Shown in pieces: positions 3,593-9,714 of a stretch of 19,006 bases of DNA. Every line of letters begins with the position of its first letter. Within the stretch, counting starts at the first letter, position 1. Location of the stretch: the NCBI GenBank assembly GCA_030587475.2, contig JAUQYZ020000017.1:1-19006 (forward strand). The letters are read 5' to 3'. The notes under the pieces are model-generated. The model searched no databases. It saw nothing but the letters and a program-made list of their open reading frames with translations, and was not told where the DNA came from. Origin of the DNA: Candidatus Sigynarchaeum calidifontis (GTDB lineage Archaea; Asgardarchaeota; Lokiarchaeia; Sigyniarchaeales; Sigyniarchaeaceae). Position numbers and translations under genes: made by a program.

Positions 3593-5041
3593 TCATGCCG
3601 GAGGCACGGCCGAACGCTTCTTCGCGTGCAAGGCGTCGAGCTTCTCGCGGATTTCTTGCAATTTCTTCCCGTGTATCGGATACTTCCAGAGCGCGACCAG
3701 GCCAATGGCAAGCACGATGGCTGGATAGACCCCGATGAGGATGCGGAGGAGATTGACCTGATCGGGACCGACCGACCCGGGTCCGAACACGCTCCATCCA
3801 GCACCCGAGAACGTGAGCCCGACGACGAGGTAATTAGCGATCGTCGAGAGCCGAATGATGAATGTTATCACGCCGTAATATGCCCCCGACCGCCGTGTTC
3901 CGAGGTTGACCTCGTCCTCGTCGATGATCTCGGCGATGCACTGGTCGTAAAAATAGATGGAACCGCCGGTGCCGAATCCCACGAAAACCATGGCGACGAA
4001 GCCGGATTGCAGGTCCCAAGCCATCATCAAGACCAGCAGCGATCCCGCCCACCATGCGAGCGCGACGATCCCGACGTATCTGGCGCCTTTAACCTGGCGT
4101 ATCTTTGTCCAAACAGGCATCGTCACCGCGCCGACGATGAACGAGAAGAGGAGGAGGATACCGCTCATGACAGAATCATTCTTGTTTATGCCGAGCGCGT
4201 AGGTGGCAAAAAGAGGGAACATGCTCGGGATGATGCCGTTGCAGATCCAGTAGGCAAAACCGGCGATCAGGAATATCCGGAACGACTTGTTCCTGAACGT
4301 TTGCTTGACCGAAGCCCCAAAGCTCAAGGCAGATTCGCTGTCCCTGGAAAACTCCACGCGTTCCTTGACACCAAACTTGATCACGAGAGTGTAGATCACG
4401 ATAACGATGATCCCGGCAAGAAACCCGCTGAGGATGTACTGGCTAGCGGTATATGGAAGGCCTCTATCATTCGCGATGTCCTCGATGATGATCGAGGGCA
4501 TGACGAACGCGAGGACGAGCGCCACGACGACAAGCATGCTGCGTAAACGGCCGACCTCCGACCTGTCTTTCATCGAAAGAAACATCTCCGAAAACAAGGC
4601 GTTGTAATTCACGTTGAACAGCGAGTACACGCCGTCGAACATAAAAAGCACGCAAGTAAAGTACACGAATTGGATTATCTTGTCGCTTGGCGTGTTGCCG
4701 GGCGGAGGGGTGAATAATAATACCATCATGATGGCCAGCGGAATGGCCCCGGCGATCATCCACGGGCGCCGGCGACCAAGGCGCGATTTCGTGCGATCCG
4801 ACAAGTTGCCGATGAGATTGTCGTTGATCGCGTTCCAAAAGGACCAGATGATGAATCCGACCGAGATCCACCGAACATCGAGCCCGATGACCGTGAAATA
4901 ATACGTGAATATGAGGAACGAGAATGTCTGGTACGCGACGTTGTCACCGACCTCGCCGAGTGCGAAAAATCTCTTGGCTCGCTTCGGCATGTCGATTTCC
5001 TTGCTTGTATCACCGCGTGATTCGCCCATGTTTTGCACCAC
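3593..5041 (-). CDS. MFS transporter, glycoside-pentoside-hexuronide (MelB-like) family
   Basis: About 12 hydrophobic segments, WNAIND...IGNLSDRTKSRLGRRRPW motif and AEIIDEDE...GTRRSGAYYG. The start may be the ATG at 5029. Confidence 0.92.
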   Translation of the reverse strand: MVQNMGESRGDTSKEIDMPKRAKRFFALGEVGDNVAYQTFSFLIFTYYFTVIGLDVRWISVGFIIWSFWNAINDNLIGNLSDRTKSRLGRRRPWMIAGAIPLAIMMVLLFTPPPGNTPSDKIIQFVYFTCVLFMFDGVYSLFNVNYNALFSEMFLSMKDRSEVGRLRSMLVVVALVLAFVMPSIIIEDIANDRGLPYTASQYILSGFLAGIIVIVIYTLVIKFGVKERVEFSRDSESALSFGASVKQTFRNKSFRIFLIAGFAYWICNGIIPSMFPLFATYALGINKNDSVMSGILLLFSFIVGAVTMPVWTKIRQVKGARYVGIVALAWWAGSLLVLMMAWDLQSGFVAMVFVGFGTGGSIYFYDQCIAEIIDEDEVNLGTRRSGAYYGVITFIIRLSTIANYLVVGLTFSGAGWSVFGPGSVGPDQVNLLRILIGVYPAIVLAIGLVALWKYPIHGKKLQEIREKLDALHAKKRSAVPPA

Positions 5042-5349
5042 TTAGCCATTATCCCTCGCGCCTATTTTAATTACCCACACCAGTTCCACGGACGAAGGTG
5101 GAATGATCGCCGGATAGTTCAGGGGGAGGCAAATTATCGAACGGGTATCGAACAGCCCCTGATCCTCACGTGGACCGCGAATCCAAAAGGGCCTGGGAGA
5201 AAAATTTCGACGGCTGCCCGTTTTCCGCGGCCTGGTTTCGTTACTAGCCCCCGTGTCAAGAATGAACAAGGCAAACGAATGGCCATGATTGCGATTAATA
5301 TTTAAAGGATACCATAGATCAGTTTATCTAGCGCCTAGAAATGGGTTGA

Positions 5350-5847
5350 ATGAAGGTGGCGAGTAGCTTCAAGAAAGTGAAGGACGCTTTCGTGCGGTTT
5401 TTCGAAGCGATCGCCGCCTTTTTCAAGAACTTGTTCAAGAAAAGAAGTGACGACAAAATGGGAGAAAACCCGGATTTCGACGAGGATTTGGGACCGCCAG
5501 CAGAGGAACCCGCGGCACCCAAACCCGTTTCGAGCAAGACCCCCGCCGGCACTGCGCCGAGGTCGATCGCGTCGAAGACACCCGCCGCAAGTGGTGGTAA
5601 AGATGTCTCCGTTTATTTTCAATCAACCATCGGGCCAGGCGAGAAGAAACAGAAGCTGCTCGTGAATACCGGCAATCAAGTTGGCGCCATCAAGCAGACG
5701 GTTGGCAACATGTTCGGCTTGGACCCGAACGATTTCCATCTCTCGCATGGTGGTGTCACGTTGGACGAGGGAGCCCCCTTGAGCAATTACAACGTGAACG
5801 ACGGGGACACCTTGCTGCTCATCCCGGCAAGCACCGCGGGCATGTAG
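5350..5847 (+). CDS. Ubiquitin-like modifier with N-terminal amphipathic helix and disordered linker; C-terminus IPASTAG-M
   Basis: The C-terminal ~80 aa align by eye with ubiquitin (DFHLSHGGVTLDEGAPLSNYNVNDGDTLLLI vs [31 protein letters not shown]). First gene of the E1-E2-JAMM-RING operon. Confidence 0.88.
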   Translation: MKVASSFKKVKDAFVRFFEAIAAFFKNLFKKRSDDKMGENPDFDEDLGPPAEEPAAPKPVSSKTPAGTAPRSIASKTPAASGGKDVSVYFQSTIGPGEKKQKLLVNTGNQVGAIKQTVGNMFGLDPNDFHLSHGGVTLDEGAPLSNYNVNDGDTLLLIPASTAGM

Positions 5848-5869
5848 AATCTCTCCGATCATTGCGGGG

Positions 5870-5893
5870 AAAAAAGACTCTTGTCTTTTTTTT
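5870..5893 (+). terminator. Inverted repeat with T-run between the Ubl and E1 genes (possible terminator/attenuator)
   Basis: AAAAAAGAC-TCTT-GTCTTTTTT perfect 9-bp stem ending in a T8 tract. Confidence 0.45.
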
Positions 5894-5912
5894 ATTCAAA
5901 TCATGACGGAGA

Positions 5913-7142
5913 ATGACGAACGTGGATAAATCCGATTTCTTCAACACGGAGCTGACGGAAAAGGAACGGGAACTGTACAACAGGCAATTCCGGTACGAAG
6001 GGTGGAACCAGTCCATCCTCAAGCGAGCCAGGGTGCTCGTCGCCGGCGTCGGCGGGCTCGGGTGCGAGATCGCCAAGAACCTGGCCATGGTAGGCATCGG
6101 CCATATCGACCTGGTCGATCTCGATGTCATCGAACATTCGAACTTGAACCGCCAGTTCCTGTTCCTCGAGGCGAACATCGGGGCGCCGAAGGCGACCGTC
6201 GCCGCCGAGAAGCTGCGGGGGATCAACCCCACGATCGAGATCACGGGCCATCACTCTGCGCTCGAGCGGCTCGACCCGGACATCTACCGGCGGGCGGACG
6301 TGCTGGTCGGGGGGCTCGATTCCGTCCTGGCACGCCAAAACCTGAATGCCCAGGCCATCCGCTTCAGGAAACCGCTCGTCGACGGCGGCGTCGGCGGGTA
6401 CAATGGCCACGTCTACACGATCATGCCGTACGAGAACGCTTGTTACGAGTGCCAGCCACATCCATCCGGCCCGAGCGACGAGATGGCCGCGTGCACCGTC
6501 GTCGGCGTGCCCCGCAAGCGCGTGCATTGCGTTTTCAAGGGAAACATGCTATTTCAAGACACGTTCAAGCACGACCCCGACCCGAAAAAGCTCGATGACG
6601 TGGAATTCGTGCGGAAAGAGGCAAACCGGCTCGCCCGCGAGTATAATTTTCTCCCGGAATTTTCCACGGGGGATGTCGTGAAGGTCCTCGACCGCCACGA
6701 CCCGGGCCTCATCACGATCAACGCGGTCATCTCGGCAATCCAATCGCACGAGGTGATCAAGATCGTGAACTGGAAGGCCGGGAACAAGGCGCTGGGAGAA
6801 CCGATGAAAACGTACCTGATATTCAACGGCATGACCATGAAGTTCTATTATATCGAGAAACCTCGAAACCCGGCTTGCCCGCAATGCGGCGACAACGTCA
6901 AGCGCGTGGGCATCGAGCTTGCGAGCACCGATCCTTGCCAGAAAATCATCGACATGCTGGTGGCAATGGGATTTAAAACGAGCCCGGACATGGAGCCGGT
7001 GCTCACGATGAACGATTTCAAGGGCGTCCGGGTGCTCGACTCGGAAAAGTCCGTCGCGGAGAACGAGCTGCGAACCTACGACCTCATCACCGTGGCCGGC
7101 TTCGCGGACGGGGAAGTGTTTATTACCTTGAAGATAAAGTGA
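5913..7142 (+). CDS. Ubiquitin-like activating enzyme E1 (ThiF/UBA3-like, with catalytic Cys and probable C-terminal ubiquitin-fold domain)
   Basis: YNRQ, VAGVGGLGCE, DLDVIEHSNLNRQFLF, Zn pairs CYEC and CPQC, catalytic-Cys motif MAACTV, and an ~80 aa C-terminal domain ending EVFITLKIK. Confidence 0.95.
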   Translation: MTNVDKSDFFNTELTEKERELYNRQFRYEGWNQSILKRARVLVAGVGGLGCEIAKNLAMVGIGHIDLVDLDVIEHSNLNRQFLFLEANIGAPKATVAAEKLRGINPTIEITGHHSALERLDPDIYRRADVLVGGLDSVLARQNLNAQAIRFRKPLVDGGVGGYNGHVYTIMPYENACYECQPHPSGPSDEMAACTVVGVPRKRVHCVFKGNMLFQDTFKHDPDPKKLDDVEFVRKEANRLAREYNFLPEFSTGDVVKVLDRHDPGLITINAVISAIQSHEVIKIVNWKAGNKALGEPMKTYLIFNGMTMKFYYIEKPRNPACPQCGDNVKRVGIELASTDPCQKIIDMLVAMGFKTSPDMEPVLTMNDFKGVRVLDSEKSVAENELRTYDLITVAGFADGEVFITLKIK

Positions 7143-7195: not shown

Positions 7196-7723
7196 ATGAG
7201 CTTGAGAACCACCAGGATCTCGCAAGATTTTGCAGCGTTGAAGAAAATGCTGAGCGAGGGAACCATCGTCCAGCTGAAAGGATTCGACAAGGATAGCAAG
7301 TCGATCGACCACCTTGCGGTGACGCTCGTCGGGCCAAAGGGAACGGCGTACCAAGGCGGCTTGTTCAAGCTGGAGATCAAGTTCCCGCCAGATTACCCCC
7401 AGCAACCACCCTTCGTGCGCCTGCATACCCCGATCTGGCATCCAAACTTTTGGCCGAAGCCATCCGAGTTTCCAGGCCAGCGGAACATCTGCCTGGCACT
7501 CGTCGACCCCTCGCTGGTCGGGACAAAAGGCGGGTGGAGCCCATCCAAGACCATCGTGACCGTCGTCCAGGCGATTATTGCCATGCTGAACACCAAGGGC
7601 CAGTACATCAACCCGACGGACGTGTTCAACAAGAAAGCAGCCGAGGAAATGCTTAGGGATCCGAAATCGTTTGACGAGAAGTGCAGGCAATTGACGAAGA
7701 AATACGCCACGGAAAAATGGTAA
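7196..7723 (+). CDS. Ubiquitin-conjugating enzyme E2 (UBC fold)
   Basis: GPKGTAYQGGLFKLEIKFPPDYPQQPPFVRLHTPIWHPN...ICL...WSPSKTIVTVVQAIIAML; HPN motif and catalytic Cys intact. Confidence 0.96.
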   Translation: MSLRTTRISQDFAALKKMLSEGTIVQLKGFDKDSKSIDHLAVTLVGPKGTAYQGGLFKLEIKFPPDYPQQPPFVRLHTPIWHPNFWPKPSEFPGQRNICLALVDPSLVGTKGGWSPSKTIVTVVQAIIAMLNTKGQYINPTDVFNKKAAEEMLRDPKSFDEKCRQLTKKYATEKW

Positions 7724-8574
7724 TGGTAATGGACATGGCAGAACAGCGAGACGGGGCTGGTAGCAAGGAGGATGCCCGGGAGCGCAAGCTCAAGGAAGAC
7801 TTGAAGCAAGAGCTGAAGGTCGAGCTTTTAAAGGAGATCTATGCCGAGCTGAAATCCGAGAAATCCGAGAAGGTCGACGTGGCAACGACGACGAAGGACA
7901 CGGTACTGCACATCAAGGAACACTTGCCCAAGATGGAAGTCCCTCCAGCAACACCGATTGCAGTGGCTGCTCCTTCAACGTCTTCCACTCCAGCCACGCC
8001 TTCCCCGCCTCAGGAACGCATCACGTTGACCGCGAAGGTGTTTCTCAAGATTGCCGCCCACGCGCTGAAATACGCTAACAACGGTATCCCCCGGGAGAAA
8101 TGGGTGGAGGTCATCGGCTTGCTTGCCGGAAAGCTCGACAACAACGGGGCCGTGCTGCACGTTGAGGACGCCTACCCGATGGGGCATGGAAATGCTGTTT
8201 ACGCCGAGATCAAGGAATACAAGAACTTTGTTCGTGCTTACAACGATTTGCGAGGACAAGGGCTCTTTGTTGCGGGTTGGTATCATTCTCATCCTGCGTA
8301 TGGCCTGTTCTTGAGCGACGAGGATATGGGCACGCAGGCCCGCTACCAGAAATTATGGGACAAGTCCATCGCCCTCGTCATCGACCCGTACCAGATCAAC
8401 GGCACCTCGTTCGGGTTCAACATCTTCAGAGCGAATTTAAAAACGAGGAAATGGTTCCCCGTGCCGTTTTCCTTCAAGAACGAGCTGGACACGAAAGTAA
8501 TCCCGGAACTGGTCGAATTCATCAATCCTATCGTGGATGGGAAGGCGCTTTTCATGGAATACGACCAGGGGTAG
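7723..8574 (+). CDS. JAMM/MPN+ metallo-isopeptidase (Rpn11/CSN5-like) with N-terminal extension
   Basis: EVIGLL and GWYHSHPAYGLFLSDED (E...HxH-x7-S-x2-D), then TQARYQ and ALVIDP. Start uncertain: in-frame ATGs at 7717, 7723, 7729 and 7735; 7723 overlaps the E2 stop (TAATG). Confidence 0.93.
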   Translation: MVMDMAEQRDGAGSKEDARERKLKEDLKQELKVELLKEIYAELKSEKSEKVDVATTTKDTVLHIKEHLPKMEVPPATPIAVAAPSTSSTPATPSPPQERITLTAKVFLKIAAHALKYANNGIPREKWVEVIGLLAGKLDNNGAVLHVEDAYPMGHGNAVYAEIKEYKNFVRAYNDLRGQGLFVAGWYHSHPAYGLFLSDEDMGTQARYQKLWDKSIALVIDPYQINGTSFGFNIFRANLKTRKWFPVPFSFKNELDTKVIPELVEFINPIVDGKALFMEYDQG

Positions 8575-8577
8575 AAC

Positions 8578-9714
8578 ATGGCACGTTTACGATGGTTCCA
8601 TTACTTGATCGTCCTTCTCATTTTCCTGGTTCTCGCAGTCCTGGCTGGCGTCCCCCTGGAACCCCCAGCAACGAACGATTTCTGGTCGTGGATGCTCGTC
8701 GGCGCCTGGACCATGCTCGGCATGAAGCTCGCCGACAGCGCCGCCTACCTGCGCTCGTTCAACTCGATGCAGAACCACGCGCTGTTCGTGTTCTGGACAA
8801 ACTTCGCCGCCCTCGTCTTCGGTGCATGGGGCAACTTCACGACCATCCCGTATCTCGCCGAGCCGGTCGTGGAAGTGCCCGCCGGCTGGATCGTGGTGAA
8901 CTGGTGGTCGCTGCTCTTTTCGGTCCCGTACTTCCTTTATGGAACCTACGCGATTCACGCGTGCTTCCGCCGGTACTTCTACGTGTACATCTTTGGAAAA
9001 TCGGTGAACTCCAAGAAATTCGGCGTCTTCGTCGTCGTGTTCGATGTCGTCTTTGAAGCATTGTACCTCGCGTTTTTATTTTTCTGGTTCGGCTCCGTGG
9101 ATGCCCCGCTCGACCTCGTCTCCCGGCACGTGGACCCGGCCGGGATCCTGTTCTTGCTCGTGTCCATCATCATCGCGGCCAGGTACGGGCGGTCGCCGTC
9201 GATCCCCGACATCAGCGCCCCGCTGCCCTCGCCCGTCCGGGCACGTCCCAGGCCGCAACCGGCCGCGCCGGAGCCCGTCCAGCGCGTTGCCCAGCCCGTT
9301 GCCCAGCCCGTTGCCCAGCCCGCACGGCCCGTCCAACCGGCCAGGAGCTGGGACGCGGGCGTGGCGCGGCGGGTGAGCGTGCGGGTGGCCGCGCCGGAGG
9401 CGGTCCGCGTCGAGCGGGTCAACATCGACGAGTTGCGCCCGAAAGGCAGCGTGCTCTCGAAGGAAGACTTCAAGTGCATTTTTTGCTTCAATTTATTCAA
9501 GAGCCCGGACGATGACAACCGGGGGGTCGTGATCTGCCCGTCATGCCGCCATCCGGCACACGCTGACGAGTTCCGGGAGTGGGCGCGGAATTCGAGCTTG
9601 TGCTCCCGCTGCGACGCCAAACTCCCCGAAAATTTCCGGAAAAGGCCGCGGATCGTGAGCGTGAAGGTGTACCTGGACGGGATGAAGCGTTTATCGAGCC
9701 AGATCAAGGGCTGA
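8578..9714 (+). CDS. Polytopic membrane protein (~6 TM) with Pro-rich linker and C-terminal RING-like zinc finger; putative E3 ligase
   Basis: Six hydrophobic segments in the first ~200 aa, then CIFC-x16-CPSCRHPAHADEFREW-x6-CSRC at 9475-9612 with the conserved RING Trp. Last gene of the Ubl-E1-E2-JAMM operon. Confidence 0.82.
   Translation: MARLRWFHYLIVLLIFLVLAVLAGVPLEPPATNDFWSWMLVGAWTMLGMKLADSAAYLRSFNSMQNHALFVFWTNFAALVFGAWGNFTTIPYLAEPVVEVPAGWIVVNWWSLLFSVPYFLYGTYAIHACFRRYFYVYIFGKSVNSKKFGVFVVVFDVVFEALYLAFLFFWFGSVDAPLDLVSRHVDPAGILFLLVSIIIAARYGRSPSIPDISAPLPSPVRARPRPQPAAPEPVQRVAQPVAQPVAQPARPVQPARSWDAGVARRVSVRVAAPEAVRVERVNIDELRPKGSVLSKEDFKCIFCFNLFKSPDDDNRGVVICPSCRHPAHADEFREWARNSSLCSRCDAKLPENFRKRPRIVSVKVYLDGMKRLSSQIKG
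9286..9322 (+). repeat. 12-bp tandem repeat x3 (GTTGCCCAGCCC) encoding VAQP repeats in the E3 linker
   Basis: Three perfect copies directly visible. Confidence 0.9.

Follow-up and report, generated by a model that had tools for sequence, protein, structure and literature searches.

A recently added, clade-restricted amphipathic helix on a ubiquitin-like protein of Candidatus Sigynarchaeum calidifontis and its possible role as membrane anchor

The ubiquitin-like protein (Ubl) of Candidatus Sigynarchaeum calidifontis and a few close relatives carries a cationic, Phe-rich amphipathic helix in front of the N-terminus that is ancestral to its family. Judged by its codon-level conservation, the helix is translated throughout the clade that bears it and, judged by its distribution, it is a recent addition restricted to that clade. 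We suggest, by analogy with known membrane helices and with a probability of roughly 0.5, that it serves as peripheral in-plane anchor on the cytoplasmic membrane and would thus concentrate the Ubl there. The gene lies within the window, i.e. the whole stretch of 19,006 nucleotides that was analysed (contig JAUQYZ020000017.1), and the features of the locus are collected in Table 1.

Table 1. Features of the Ubl locus (positions in the window; residues numbered from the ATG at 5350).
Feature	Position	Strand	Basis or remark
TATA-box-like element atttaaaggata	5300..5311	+	~45-55 nt upstream of the long-form start
SD-like motif GGGTTGA of the long-form start	5343..5349	+	6 nt upstream of GTG 5356
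Predicted mRNA hairpin, long-form SD/GTG pairing with codons ~19-26	5346..5426	+	MFE; weak evidence
Start codon GTG of the putative long form	5356..5358	+	Codon alignment of five intact sequences
Cationic, Phe-rich amphipathic helix, residues 7-32	5368..5445	+	µH, AlphaFold2 helix 3-33, dN/dS 0.07-0.37, codon-position bias
Retained ancestral ribosome-binding site (AGTGA, then 7 nt) and Met37 (5458-5460)	5446..5460	+	
Disordered N-terminal tail, residues 33-84, acidic and then Pro/Ser/Thr/Lys-rich half	5446..5601	+	pLDDT 45-51
Conserved acidic-aromatic motif D-F-D-E-D-L, residues 42-47	5473..5490	+	
Two S-K-T-P motifs, residues 62-65 and 75-78	5533..5583	+	
Beta-grasp (ubiquitin-fold) domain, residues 85-159	5602..5826	+	PF00240, AlphaFold2, dN/dS 0.02-0.09
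C-terminal tail A-S-T-A-G, one extra residue (Met) and stop codon	5827..5847	+	
E1-like (ThiF) gene	5913..7142	+	PF00899, E = 3e-58
E2-like (UQ_con, UBC-type) gene	7196..7723	+	PF00179, E = 3e-26
JAB/MPN metalloprotease gene, start uncertain	7681..8574	+	PF01398, E = 6e-14
Polytopic membrane protein with C-terminal Cys/His RING-like finger, 378 residues	8578..9714	+	Translation

Architecture of the Ubl and properties of its helix

The open reading frame 5350-5847 (+) encodes a Ubl of 165 residues, the best protein database match of which is from Candidatus Sigynarchaeum springense (93% identity), the other named matches being from Loki/Promethearchaeota, Hel-, Hod- and Sigynarchaeota. In the AlphaFold2 model, which is based on an alignment of 34 sequences and has an overall pTM of 0.48, a helix (residues 3-33, pLDDT ~65-82) is followed by a region devoid of secondary structure (residues 34-84, pLDDT 45-51) and by a beta-grasp (residues 85-159, pLDDT 84-92) with the order strand-strand-helix-strand-strand. 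Pfam PF00240 (ubiquitin) matches residues 101-157 with E = 9.1e-6, the 25.8 bits being barely above the cut-off of 25.4. The order initially proposed from the sequence, i.e. an amphipathic helix, a disordered stretch and then the Ubl fold, is thus borne out by hydrophobic moment, structure prediction and Pfam. At the C-terminus, the family (34 homologues) ends with LIPASTAG and 0-4 variable residues, i.e. there is no Gly-Gly end and the family has Ala-Gly, with both A163 and G164 being invariant; as the C-terminus reads A-S-T-A-G-M and contains no Cys, a CAAX box is absent, too. Besides the only free Ubl gene of this family, the assembly, which is 89% complete, contains a copy that is fused and a small Ubl ORF that is unrelated.

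Hydrophobic moments (µH) were calculated with the Fauchere-Pliska scale at 100 degrees, and their significance was estimated from sequence shuffles. The best 18-mer of the helix has a µH of 0.712, a hydrophobicity (H) of 0.62 and a charge of +3, and 0 of 5000 shuffles reach this moment. The spacing of Phe, Val, Ile and Leu noticed in the sequence-only reading is therefore indeed that of an amphipathic helix. For the entire 26-mer on which that reading had focused, Ubl residues 7-32 (5368-5445), µH is 0.615 at a net charge of +6, a value attained by a fraction of 0.00045 of the shuffles (n = 20000), and the moment has a sharp peak at 100 degrees. The hydrophobic face, i.e. the residues no more than 60 degrees from the moment, is formed by F7, V10, F14, F17, F18, I21, F25 and L28, with K8, K9, D12, R16, E19, K26, N27 and K30 on the opposite, polar face; 7 of the 26 residues are Phe. 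The property is shared by six homologues (µH 0.71-0.80, H 0.41-0.62, 18-mer charge +2 or +3), where at most 2 of 5000 shuffles match. Thus, the helix has the sequence features of an in-plane amphipathic membrane helix: a length of at least 18 residues, a high moment, a bulky and continuous hydrophobic face and positive charge.

The disordered tail behind the helix is found in 34 of 34 aligned homologues. In its acidic motif L47 is invariant and F43, D44 and E45 are nearly so, and the DFDEDL unit is repeated in some lineages, e.g. EFDEEFDEEFDDEF; in its S-K-T-P motifs there is no variation at K76 and P78 and hardly any at P65. The tail was originally regarded as an acidic/Pro-rich tether. It is disordered and comprises about 50 residues, as expected, but it is not a plain linker: its conservation identifies it as the ancestral N-terminus of the family, already functional before the helix was added in front of it, an addition by which a formerly terminal motif became internal.

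Translation of the helix and the ancestral start at Met37

The helix-bearing set consists of the window, L031, L021 (identical to L002), L025 and L026, plus P0006, which is represented by its protein only. For the helix segment (34 codons), four orthologues give dN/dS values of 0.07-0.19 at dS 0.7-1.2, similar to the Ubl core of the same four orthologues (0.02-0.09); with L031 added, i.e. for the five intact orthologues, the pairwise values do not exceed 0.37, resulting in an overall range of 0.07-0.37. The columns that vary among these five are distributed over codon positions 1, 2 and 3 as 9/6/21 (chi-square p = 0.005). Moreover, substitutions on the hydrophobic face are limited to F/L or I/M, and changes in charge or polarity (K/E, V/R/K, D/E/G, A/E, A/T/N) are almost all located on the polar face, while the reading frame of the helix is open into the Ubl in 5/5 intact sequences. 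The helix region evolves as coding sequence, which argues that the helix is translated in the clade that carries it. RNA structure was also considered as the main cause of the conservation and is ruled out, as the variation is concentrated at third codon positions.

The counterpart of this conservation is provided by a sixth locus, L022, which is identical in one NCBI assembly and two Logan assemblies, maybe of the same sampled population. L022 has the same synteny and a complete operon, its Ubl being called from Met37, and the DNA upstream is homologous to the helix-coding segment (local alignment z = 19-40). However, the GTG start is lost and one base is deleted so that the frames no longer join, and Pro, Thr, Cys and Ser are found in place of residues of the hydrophobic face. 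Compared with L025, L022 differs at 26 of 77 sites (34%) plus an indel in the helix segment, at 24% of the sites in the intergenic region and at 21 of 237 sites (9%) in the Ubl core. As L022 is nested within the group of L025 and L026 (bootstrap 91, codon tree rooted with L029 and L030), the tree argues that the helix is secondarily lost here, and the divergence indicates decay at about the neutral rate. That the segment decays once the frame is broken argues that the constraint in the other lineages acts on the peptide, not on DNA or RNA. Likewise, the loss of the helix from a lineage that has kept the whole operon marks it as dispensable, i.e. as not integral to the conjugation system.

The sequence-only reading had itself pointed out that the true start might lie downstream at Met37, the helix being untranslated; Met37 would then be the sole start and the upstream frame would be fortuitously open or conserved at the level of DNA or RNA. 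Met37 is in fact the start in nearly all homologues, gene callers choose it for the Ubl of L022, and other 'long' database entries (P0096, P0107) resemble artefacts that translate the region of a TATA box. Nevertheless, this possibility is very improbable given the codon-position bias of 9/6/21, the low dN/dS at dS values reaching 1.2, a frame that five sequences keep open and the near-neutral decay of the one frame that is broken. What holds of the objection is that Met37 is an ancestral, family-wide start with a retained SD-like motif, but selection on the codons upstream speaks for translation of the helix all the same.

The long product likely starts at the GTG at 5356 and would then comprise 163 residues. 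This GTG is common to all helix-bearing orthologues, and database orthologues are called from there; an in-frame ATG at 5350 is present in the window and L031 only, and the helix is located downstream of both candidate starts. A few nucleotides 5' of the shared GTG there are SD-like motifs, namely GGTGAT in L021, GGGTTGA in L025 and L031, and GGGTGG in L026, that of the window being imperfect. Further upstream, a TATA-like element with the consensus TTTA(A/T)AGGATA is kept as TTTAAAGGATA, TTTATAGGATA or TTTTAAGGATA in 5/5 aligned orthologous upstream regions as well as in L031. It is the combination of shared GTG, SD-like motif and TATA-like box that favours 5356, and from its consensus we infer that the TATA-like element is an archaeal promoter. 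A scan for bacterial-type promoters and terminators gave no matches, as expected in an archaeon.

In the alignment of 34 homologues Met37 hardly varies, and most of the sequences start there, typically with M-x-x-D-P-x-D-F-D-E-D-L. Three other families of the order, represented by 16 genomes, have an upstream frame that, counted from the Met37 equivalent, is closed or start-less within 2-39 codons and encodes AT-rich noise, and in these genomes GGTG, AGTGA or GTGA is found 6-9 nt before this Met. Comparative evidence thus identifies Met37 as the ancestral start of the whole family and the upstream start as the novelty. In the helix-bearing clade the ancestral motif, AGTGA, falls within codons S33-D34, and it is present at similar spacing in L010, L012, L014 and L017. 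Codons 31-36 show no third-position change among the five intact sequences, vs 21 of the 29 preceding codons; none of the five codons around Met37 that could vary synonymously does so, which by our own estimate, with the earlier codons as neutral rate, has a chance of ~0.002. A nearby synonymous change in L031 (AGA to AGG) creates GGAGTGA, nearer to the SD consensus. Retention of the SD-like motif together with invariant synonymous sites suggests that the mRNA probably yields a helix-less, soluble isoform via Met37 as well. As the assembly contains only one free Ubl gene of the family, such a soluble form may be needed.

The production of two isoforms from one prokaryotic mRNA by internal initiation is known, e.g. 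for ClpB, IF2 and CheA. As in these cases, a second start with an SD-like motif of its own follows the first one in frame within the Ubl gene. In contrast to them, it is this internal start that is ancestral, the upstream one being new, and dual use is deduced here from conservation of the sequence.

The mRNA around the long-form start is predicted to form a hairpin with a minimum free energy of -45.9 kcal/mol (z = -2.9; none of 200 shuffles being equally stable), which is also predicted in 4/4 orthologues with 92% of cells paired. Covariation is not significant, as the 4 compensatory pairs among the four sequences are reached by 58 of 500 shuffles, and an Rfam scan of 5040-5920 gave no match. 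Lys/Glu codons and Phe codons are mutually complementary so that some of the pairing may simply follow from the amino-acid composition. We hypothesize from this folding model that the hairpin may tune the ratio of long to short isoform. One might go further and propose that the extension mainly regulates synthesis of the Ubl from Met37, the peptide being a by-product or a short-lived pro-sequence. The retained SD-like motif, Met37 and the invariant synonymous sites would agree with this idea, as would the hairpin across the long-form start in four orthologues and the leader of ~150 nt that the outgroup L029 apparently has already (see below); yet a regulatory leader peptide would require neither that the frame runs into the Ubl without interruption in all five lineages nor that an amphipathic pattern is conserved, with conservative changes only on one face, and the hairpin signal suffers from the lack of significant covariation and from the composition effect. 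We therefore consider a mainly regulatory role unlikely and regard the extension as a part of the protein.

Distribution and origin of the helix

Among the 34 aligned homologues the helix is found in P0002-P0006 only, and altogether it is limited to about six protein clusters that form one small clade. Here, a search with residues 1-40 against 5.8 billion proteins matched three orthologous Ubl clusters and nothing else; the number of about six results from this search plus P0003 and P0006 from the full-length search. A degenerate DNA pattern for the helix revealed one further orthologue in metagenome contigs, L031, whereas in 185,579 species genomes it hit only the contig of L021, which was already known. 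A second metagenome match, L032, is AT-rich and lies within a long, unrelated phage-like protein; it was taken as a chance match. In the window's own genome a search for relatives of the helix returned the helix itself and one insignificant match (E = 2). The helix is not a trait of the Lokiarchaeial Ubl family as a whole, being absent in the 16 genomes from three other families. Conservation in homologues, proposed as a check on the initial observation, is thus given as far as the moment is concerned (µH 0.71-0.80 in six homologues), but it is confined to a narrow clade and the helix is lost in L022.

Borrowing of the helix from another protein is rejected, as no other protein matches among the 5.8 billion. 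The N-terminal extensions of P0014, P0048, P0096 and P0107 are unrelated to the helix; at least that of the P0096/P0107 type reads as translated AT-rich promoter region, and its nucleotides recur upstream of the L016 gene, with the frame closing 5 codons short of the Met. The outgroup L029 has its nearest TATA-like elements ~150-175 nt 5' of the start and thus seems to possess a long leader of ~150 nt. This leader shares a 13-nt exact match, TTTTTCAAGAATT, with the helix segment (z = 3.5-4.2 vs two orthologues, not significant vs the others), while the leader of L030 shares nothing with it. The most economical reading suggested by these data is that a frame opened within a pre-existing long leader, the 13-nt match being the only support for homology. 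By its phylogenetic distribution the helix is a recent N-terminal addition restricted to one clade, i.e. a local innovation and not an ancestral Asgard or proto-eukaryotic trait.

Operon context, putative function and related systems

The Ubl gene heads a cluster of genes on the same strand that continues with the E1-like, the E2-like and the JAB/MPN gene, an order also found in L022 and L029. The protein encoded next (8578-9714) contains several hydrophobic segments, a Pro-rich linker and a C-x2-C ... C-x2-C-x-H-x2-H ... C-x2-C cluster, Pfam giving no match for it; a VWA protein that ends in a second Ubl is encoded on the opposite strand. The helix had been proposed to fit a membrane E3. A polytopic RING-like protein is indeed present, but an un-annotated gene that agrees with it in size and position is found behind the JAB gene of L022, where the helix is lost, and an un-annotated gene is located downstream of the JAB gene in L029, which never shows the helix, too. 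The presence of an E3-position gene in the helix-less L022 argues that helix and E3 are not specifically coupled.

Ub-E1-E2-(RING)-JAMM operons are known from Caldiarchaeum subterraneum and Asgard archaea (PMC5654768 as cited in PMC9192718; PMC9192718). Compared with these operons, the present locus likewise combines a Ubl, a ThiF-type E1, a UBC-type E2, a JAB/MPN protein and a RING-like protein, and its modifier is likewise a precursor with residues beyond the last Gly; it differs in the Ala-Gly instead of Gly-Gly end, the conserved 50-residue tail and the clade-specific helix of the modifier as well as in the polytopic nature of the RING-like protein. A text search of PMC9192718 found no mention of an N-terminal extension of the modifier, and full-text searches of the literature revealed neither a Ubl with an amphipathic helix of its own nor a description of an N-terminal helix or extension on Asgard Ubls.

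What might the helix do? Its large moment, the Phe-rich face, the Lys/Arg flanks, the charge of +6 and its N-terminal position are the reasons for which we favour the membrane anchor, at the even odds given above; the polytopic RING-like protein of the operon supplies a membrane context. One N-terminal amphipathic helix of this kind from an Asgard archaeon contributes to membrane targeting in yeast and to binding of liposomes, including those of archaeal lipids (PMC11914678), and the µH values of the Ubl helices (0.71-0.80) exceed the range of 0.236-0.636 used to recognise Arf-type membrane helices (PMC11914678). Similar to Arf/Sar1, including the Asgard Arfs, and to α0 of ESCRT-III/PspA, the Ubl helix is N-terminal, has at least 18 residues, a bulky hydrophobic face and basic flanks. 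Judged by the search of 5.8 billion proteins, however, there is no sequence relationship to any of these, the Ubl helix is higher in moment and charge, and it is joined by a 50-residue disordered tail to a conjugatable beta-grasp rather than to a GTPase switch or a polymerising core. Some observations count against the membrane anchor, i.e. the strongly acidic stretch directly after the helix, which could neutralise or mask it, the narrow distribution, the loss in L022 with the operon being kept, the imperfect SD-like motif of the long-form start in the window, and the E3-position gene that is present regardless of the helix.

Basic amphipathic helices also serve in protein binding or oligomerisation, with calmodulin-binding peptides as a classic example. 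The helix might thus be translated and yet be an element for protein binding or self-association that docks onto the E3, the VWA-Ubl or the coiled-coil protein of the locus, bundles Ubls or masks the DFDEDL tail. Selection and amphipathicity fit this alternative as well as they fit a membrane anchor, and the helix with its charge of +6 directly precedes a family-conserved acidic tract that presumably binds something basic. On the other hand, the face is dominated by Phe with Lys/Arg flanks and lacks a Leu/Ile/Val heptad pattern, AlphaFold2 packs the helix neither on the beta-grasp nor on the tail (tail pLDDT < 51, pTM 0.48), and no partner gene co-varies with the helix, L022 having the same operon without it. 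A protein-binding role is thus possible, but rather doubtful.

Based on the anchor reading the following sequence of events can be outlined. The extension of 34-36 residues would have been gained when a frame opened in the long mRNA leader upstream of Met37, and, translated from GTG 5356 (or ATG 5350), it folds into a single long, cationic amphipathic helix. The JAB protease would trim the residue after Gly164, and E1 and E2 would activate the modifier. From membrane binding onwards, we infer that the long isoform would be held at the membrane beside the polytopic RING-like E3, raising the local concentration of the modifier, and that after transfer a substrate conjugated to Gly164 would be kept at the membrane. 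More tentatively, and with clear reservation, we speculate that the Ubl may be a modifier with a protein-encoded anchor, the long isoform of which would be conjugated via Gly164 to target proteins by the membrane RING E3 and would pin these to the membrane, or crowd and deform it, whereas the soluble isoform would serve ordinary tagging, the two possibly being balanced by the hairpin.

Comparison with eukaryotic Ubls underlines the unusual arrangement. Like ATG8-PE and prenylated MUB/UBL3 (PMC7198486, PMC4996978), the long isoform would be a ubiquitin-fold protein that sits on the membrane. ATG8, however, spends its C-terminal Gly on the lipid, while the C-terminus of the present Ubl stays free for conjugation, and MUB/UBL3 has a C-terminal CAAX Cys and no Gly conjugation, while the putative anchor of the Ubl is an encoded N-terminal helix. 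Membership in either family is rejected: the Ubl helix is separated from the fold by ~50 disordered residues and not packed on it like the two N-terminal helices of ATG8, the neighbouring genes encode a ThiF-type E1, a UBC-type E2 and a JAB protease and not a machinery of the ATG7/ATG3/ATG4 type, and the C-terminal CAAX Cys of MUB/UBL3 is lacking. In the ATG8 pathway, a membrane-sensing N-terminal amphipathic helix does exist, but it belongs to the E2, ATG3, and not to the modifier. The tail of the Ubl, in turn, is reminiscent of SUMO, as SUMO-2/3 chains are formed on a Lys of the N-terminal tail and the Ubl also combines a disordered N-terminal tail that contains a conserved Lys with a conjugatable fold. 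The motifs, however, are DFDEDL and S-K-T-P and not psi-K-x-E, and SUMO is without an amphipathic helix.

The very narrow distribution and the secondary loss limit the importance of the helix, and its membrane role is deduced from analogy. Even so, the locus represents a clean natural experiment in gene evolution, with an ancestral start and ribosome-binding site kept, purifying selection in five lineages and decay in one. If the helix is indeed a membrane anchor, its emergence would be a recent and traceable case of a 5' leader giving rise to a membrane-targeting module, and this in a close prokaryotic relative of eukaryotes. To our knowledge, all known membrane-bound ubiquitin-fold proteins are lipid-anchored, the lipid using up or replacing the conjugating C-terminus. 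An N-terminal peptide anchor combined with a free C-terminal Gly could confer membrane affinity on any substrate, and such an anchor would constitute a different logic for ubiquitin-type membrane signalling in the archaeal group closest to eukaryotes.

Two putative translation starts of the Ubl gene

The longer reading frame of the Ubl gene, which starts with GTG at 5356 and encodes the N-terminal amphipathic helix, still contains the ancestral start of the family, Met37, and its Shine-Dalgarno (SD)-like AGTGA. In the surroundings of Met37, five codons capable of synonymous change are identical among the five intact orthologues, and L022, a close relative lacking the helix, shows no change in them either. 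Thus, the retention of both elements together with these invariant codons suggests that Met37 serves as internal start and that two Ubl isoforms are made. The long-form SD and GTG are predicted to pair with helix codons about 19-26, i.e. both would be buried in an mRNA hairpin. The predicted hairpin is present in four orthologues, among which covariation is not significant.

Features in the window and in L022
Feature	Position	Remarks
Predicted mRNA hairpin	5346-5426	z = -2.9
Ancestral SD-like AGTGA and Met37	5446-5463	retained within longer reading frame
Tail motifs D-F-D-E-D-L and S-K-T-P (N-terminal)	5473-5490 and 5533-5583	common to whole Lokiarchaeial Ubl family
C-terminal end L-I-P-A-S-T-A-G, then 0-4 variable residues	5827-5847	family-wide
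378-residue protein after JAB gene	8578-9714	several hydrophobic segments, Pro-rich linker, C-terminal Cys/His cluster
Decayed helix-coding segment	L022:5830-6003 (also L023, L024)	close relative, same operon as window

Loss and possible origin of the helix

L022 represents a secondary loss of the helix within the helix-bearing clade. Its helix-coding segment has lost the start, carries a 1-nt deletion as well as helix-breaking substitutions, and has diverged by about 34%, as compared to 9% for the Ubl core. In the helix-less outgroup L029 (named Sigynarchaeota archaeon) the leader 5' of the Ubl gene appears to measure about 150 nt (region L029:4820-5003), and L029 has one exact 13-nt match (TTTTTCAAGAATT) to the helix-coding segment. 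The long leader and the match give a weak hint that the helix may have arisen within a leader.

The long N-termini of the database homologues P0096 and P0107 probably reflect wrongly called starts, with the additional residues being translated from the AT-rich TATA-box region. Upstream of the Ubl gene in L016, a genome from another family of the order, the corresponding frame closes five codons before the conserved Met. On an unrelated, AT-rich metagenome contig (L032:1945-1985, minus strand), F-L-D-G-I-A-K-F-F-K-N-L-F-K is encoded within a long phage-like protein, a match judged to be due to chance as the search pattern is AT-rich.

Other genes and conserved ends of the Ubl family

The Cys/His cluster of the 378-residue protein, which has no Pfam match, resembles a RING. 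Elsewhere in the genome, a separate ubiquitin-family ORF of 77 residues (G000:C61:5975-6208; L034:1976-2209) ends in T-Q-A-A, without a terminal Gly, about 230 bases upstream of the contig end.

In certain lineages the acidic-aromatic D-F-D-E-D-L motif takes the form of repeated EFDE units. The S-K-T-P motifs include an invariant Lys. The tail could serve as a binding element or supply a Lys as acceptor. Based on the family-wide C-terminal sequence, the mature Ubl likely ends in Ala-Gly, uncovered by proteolysis.
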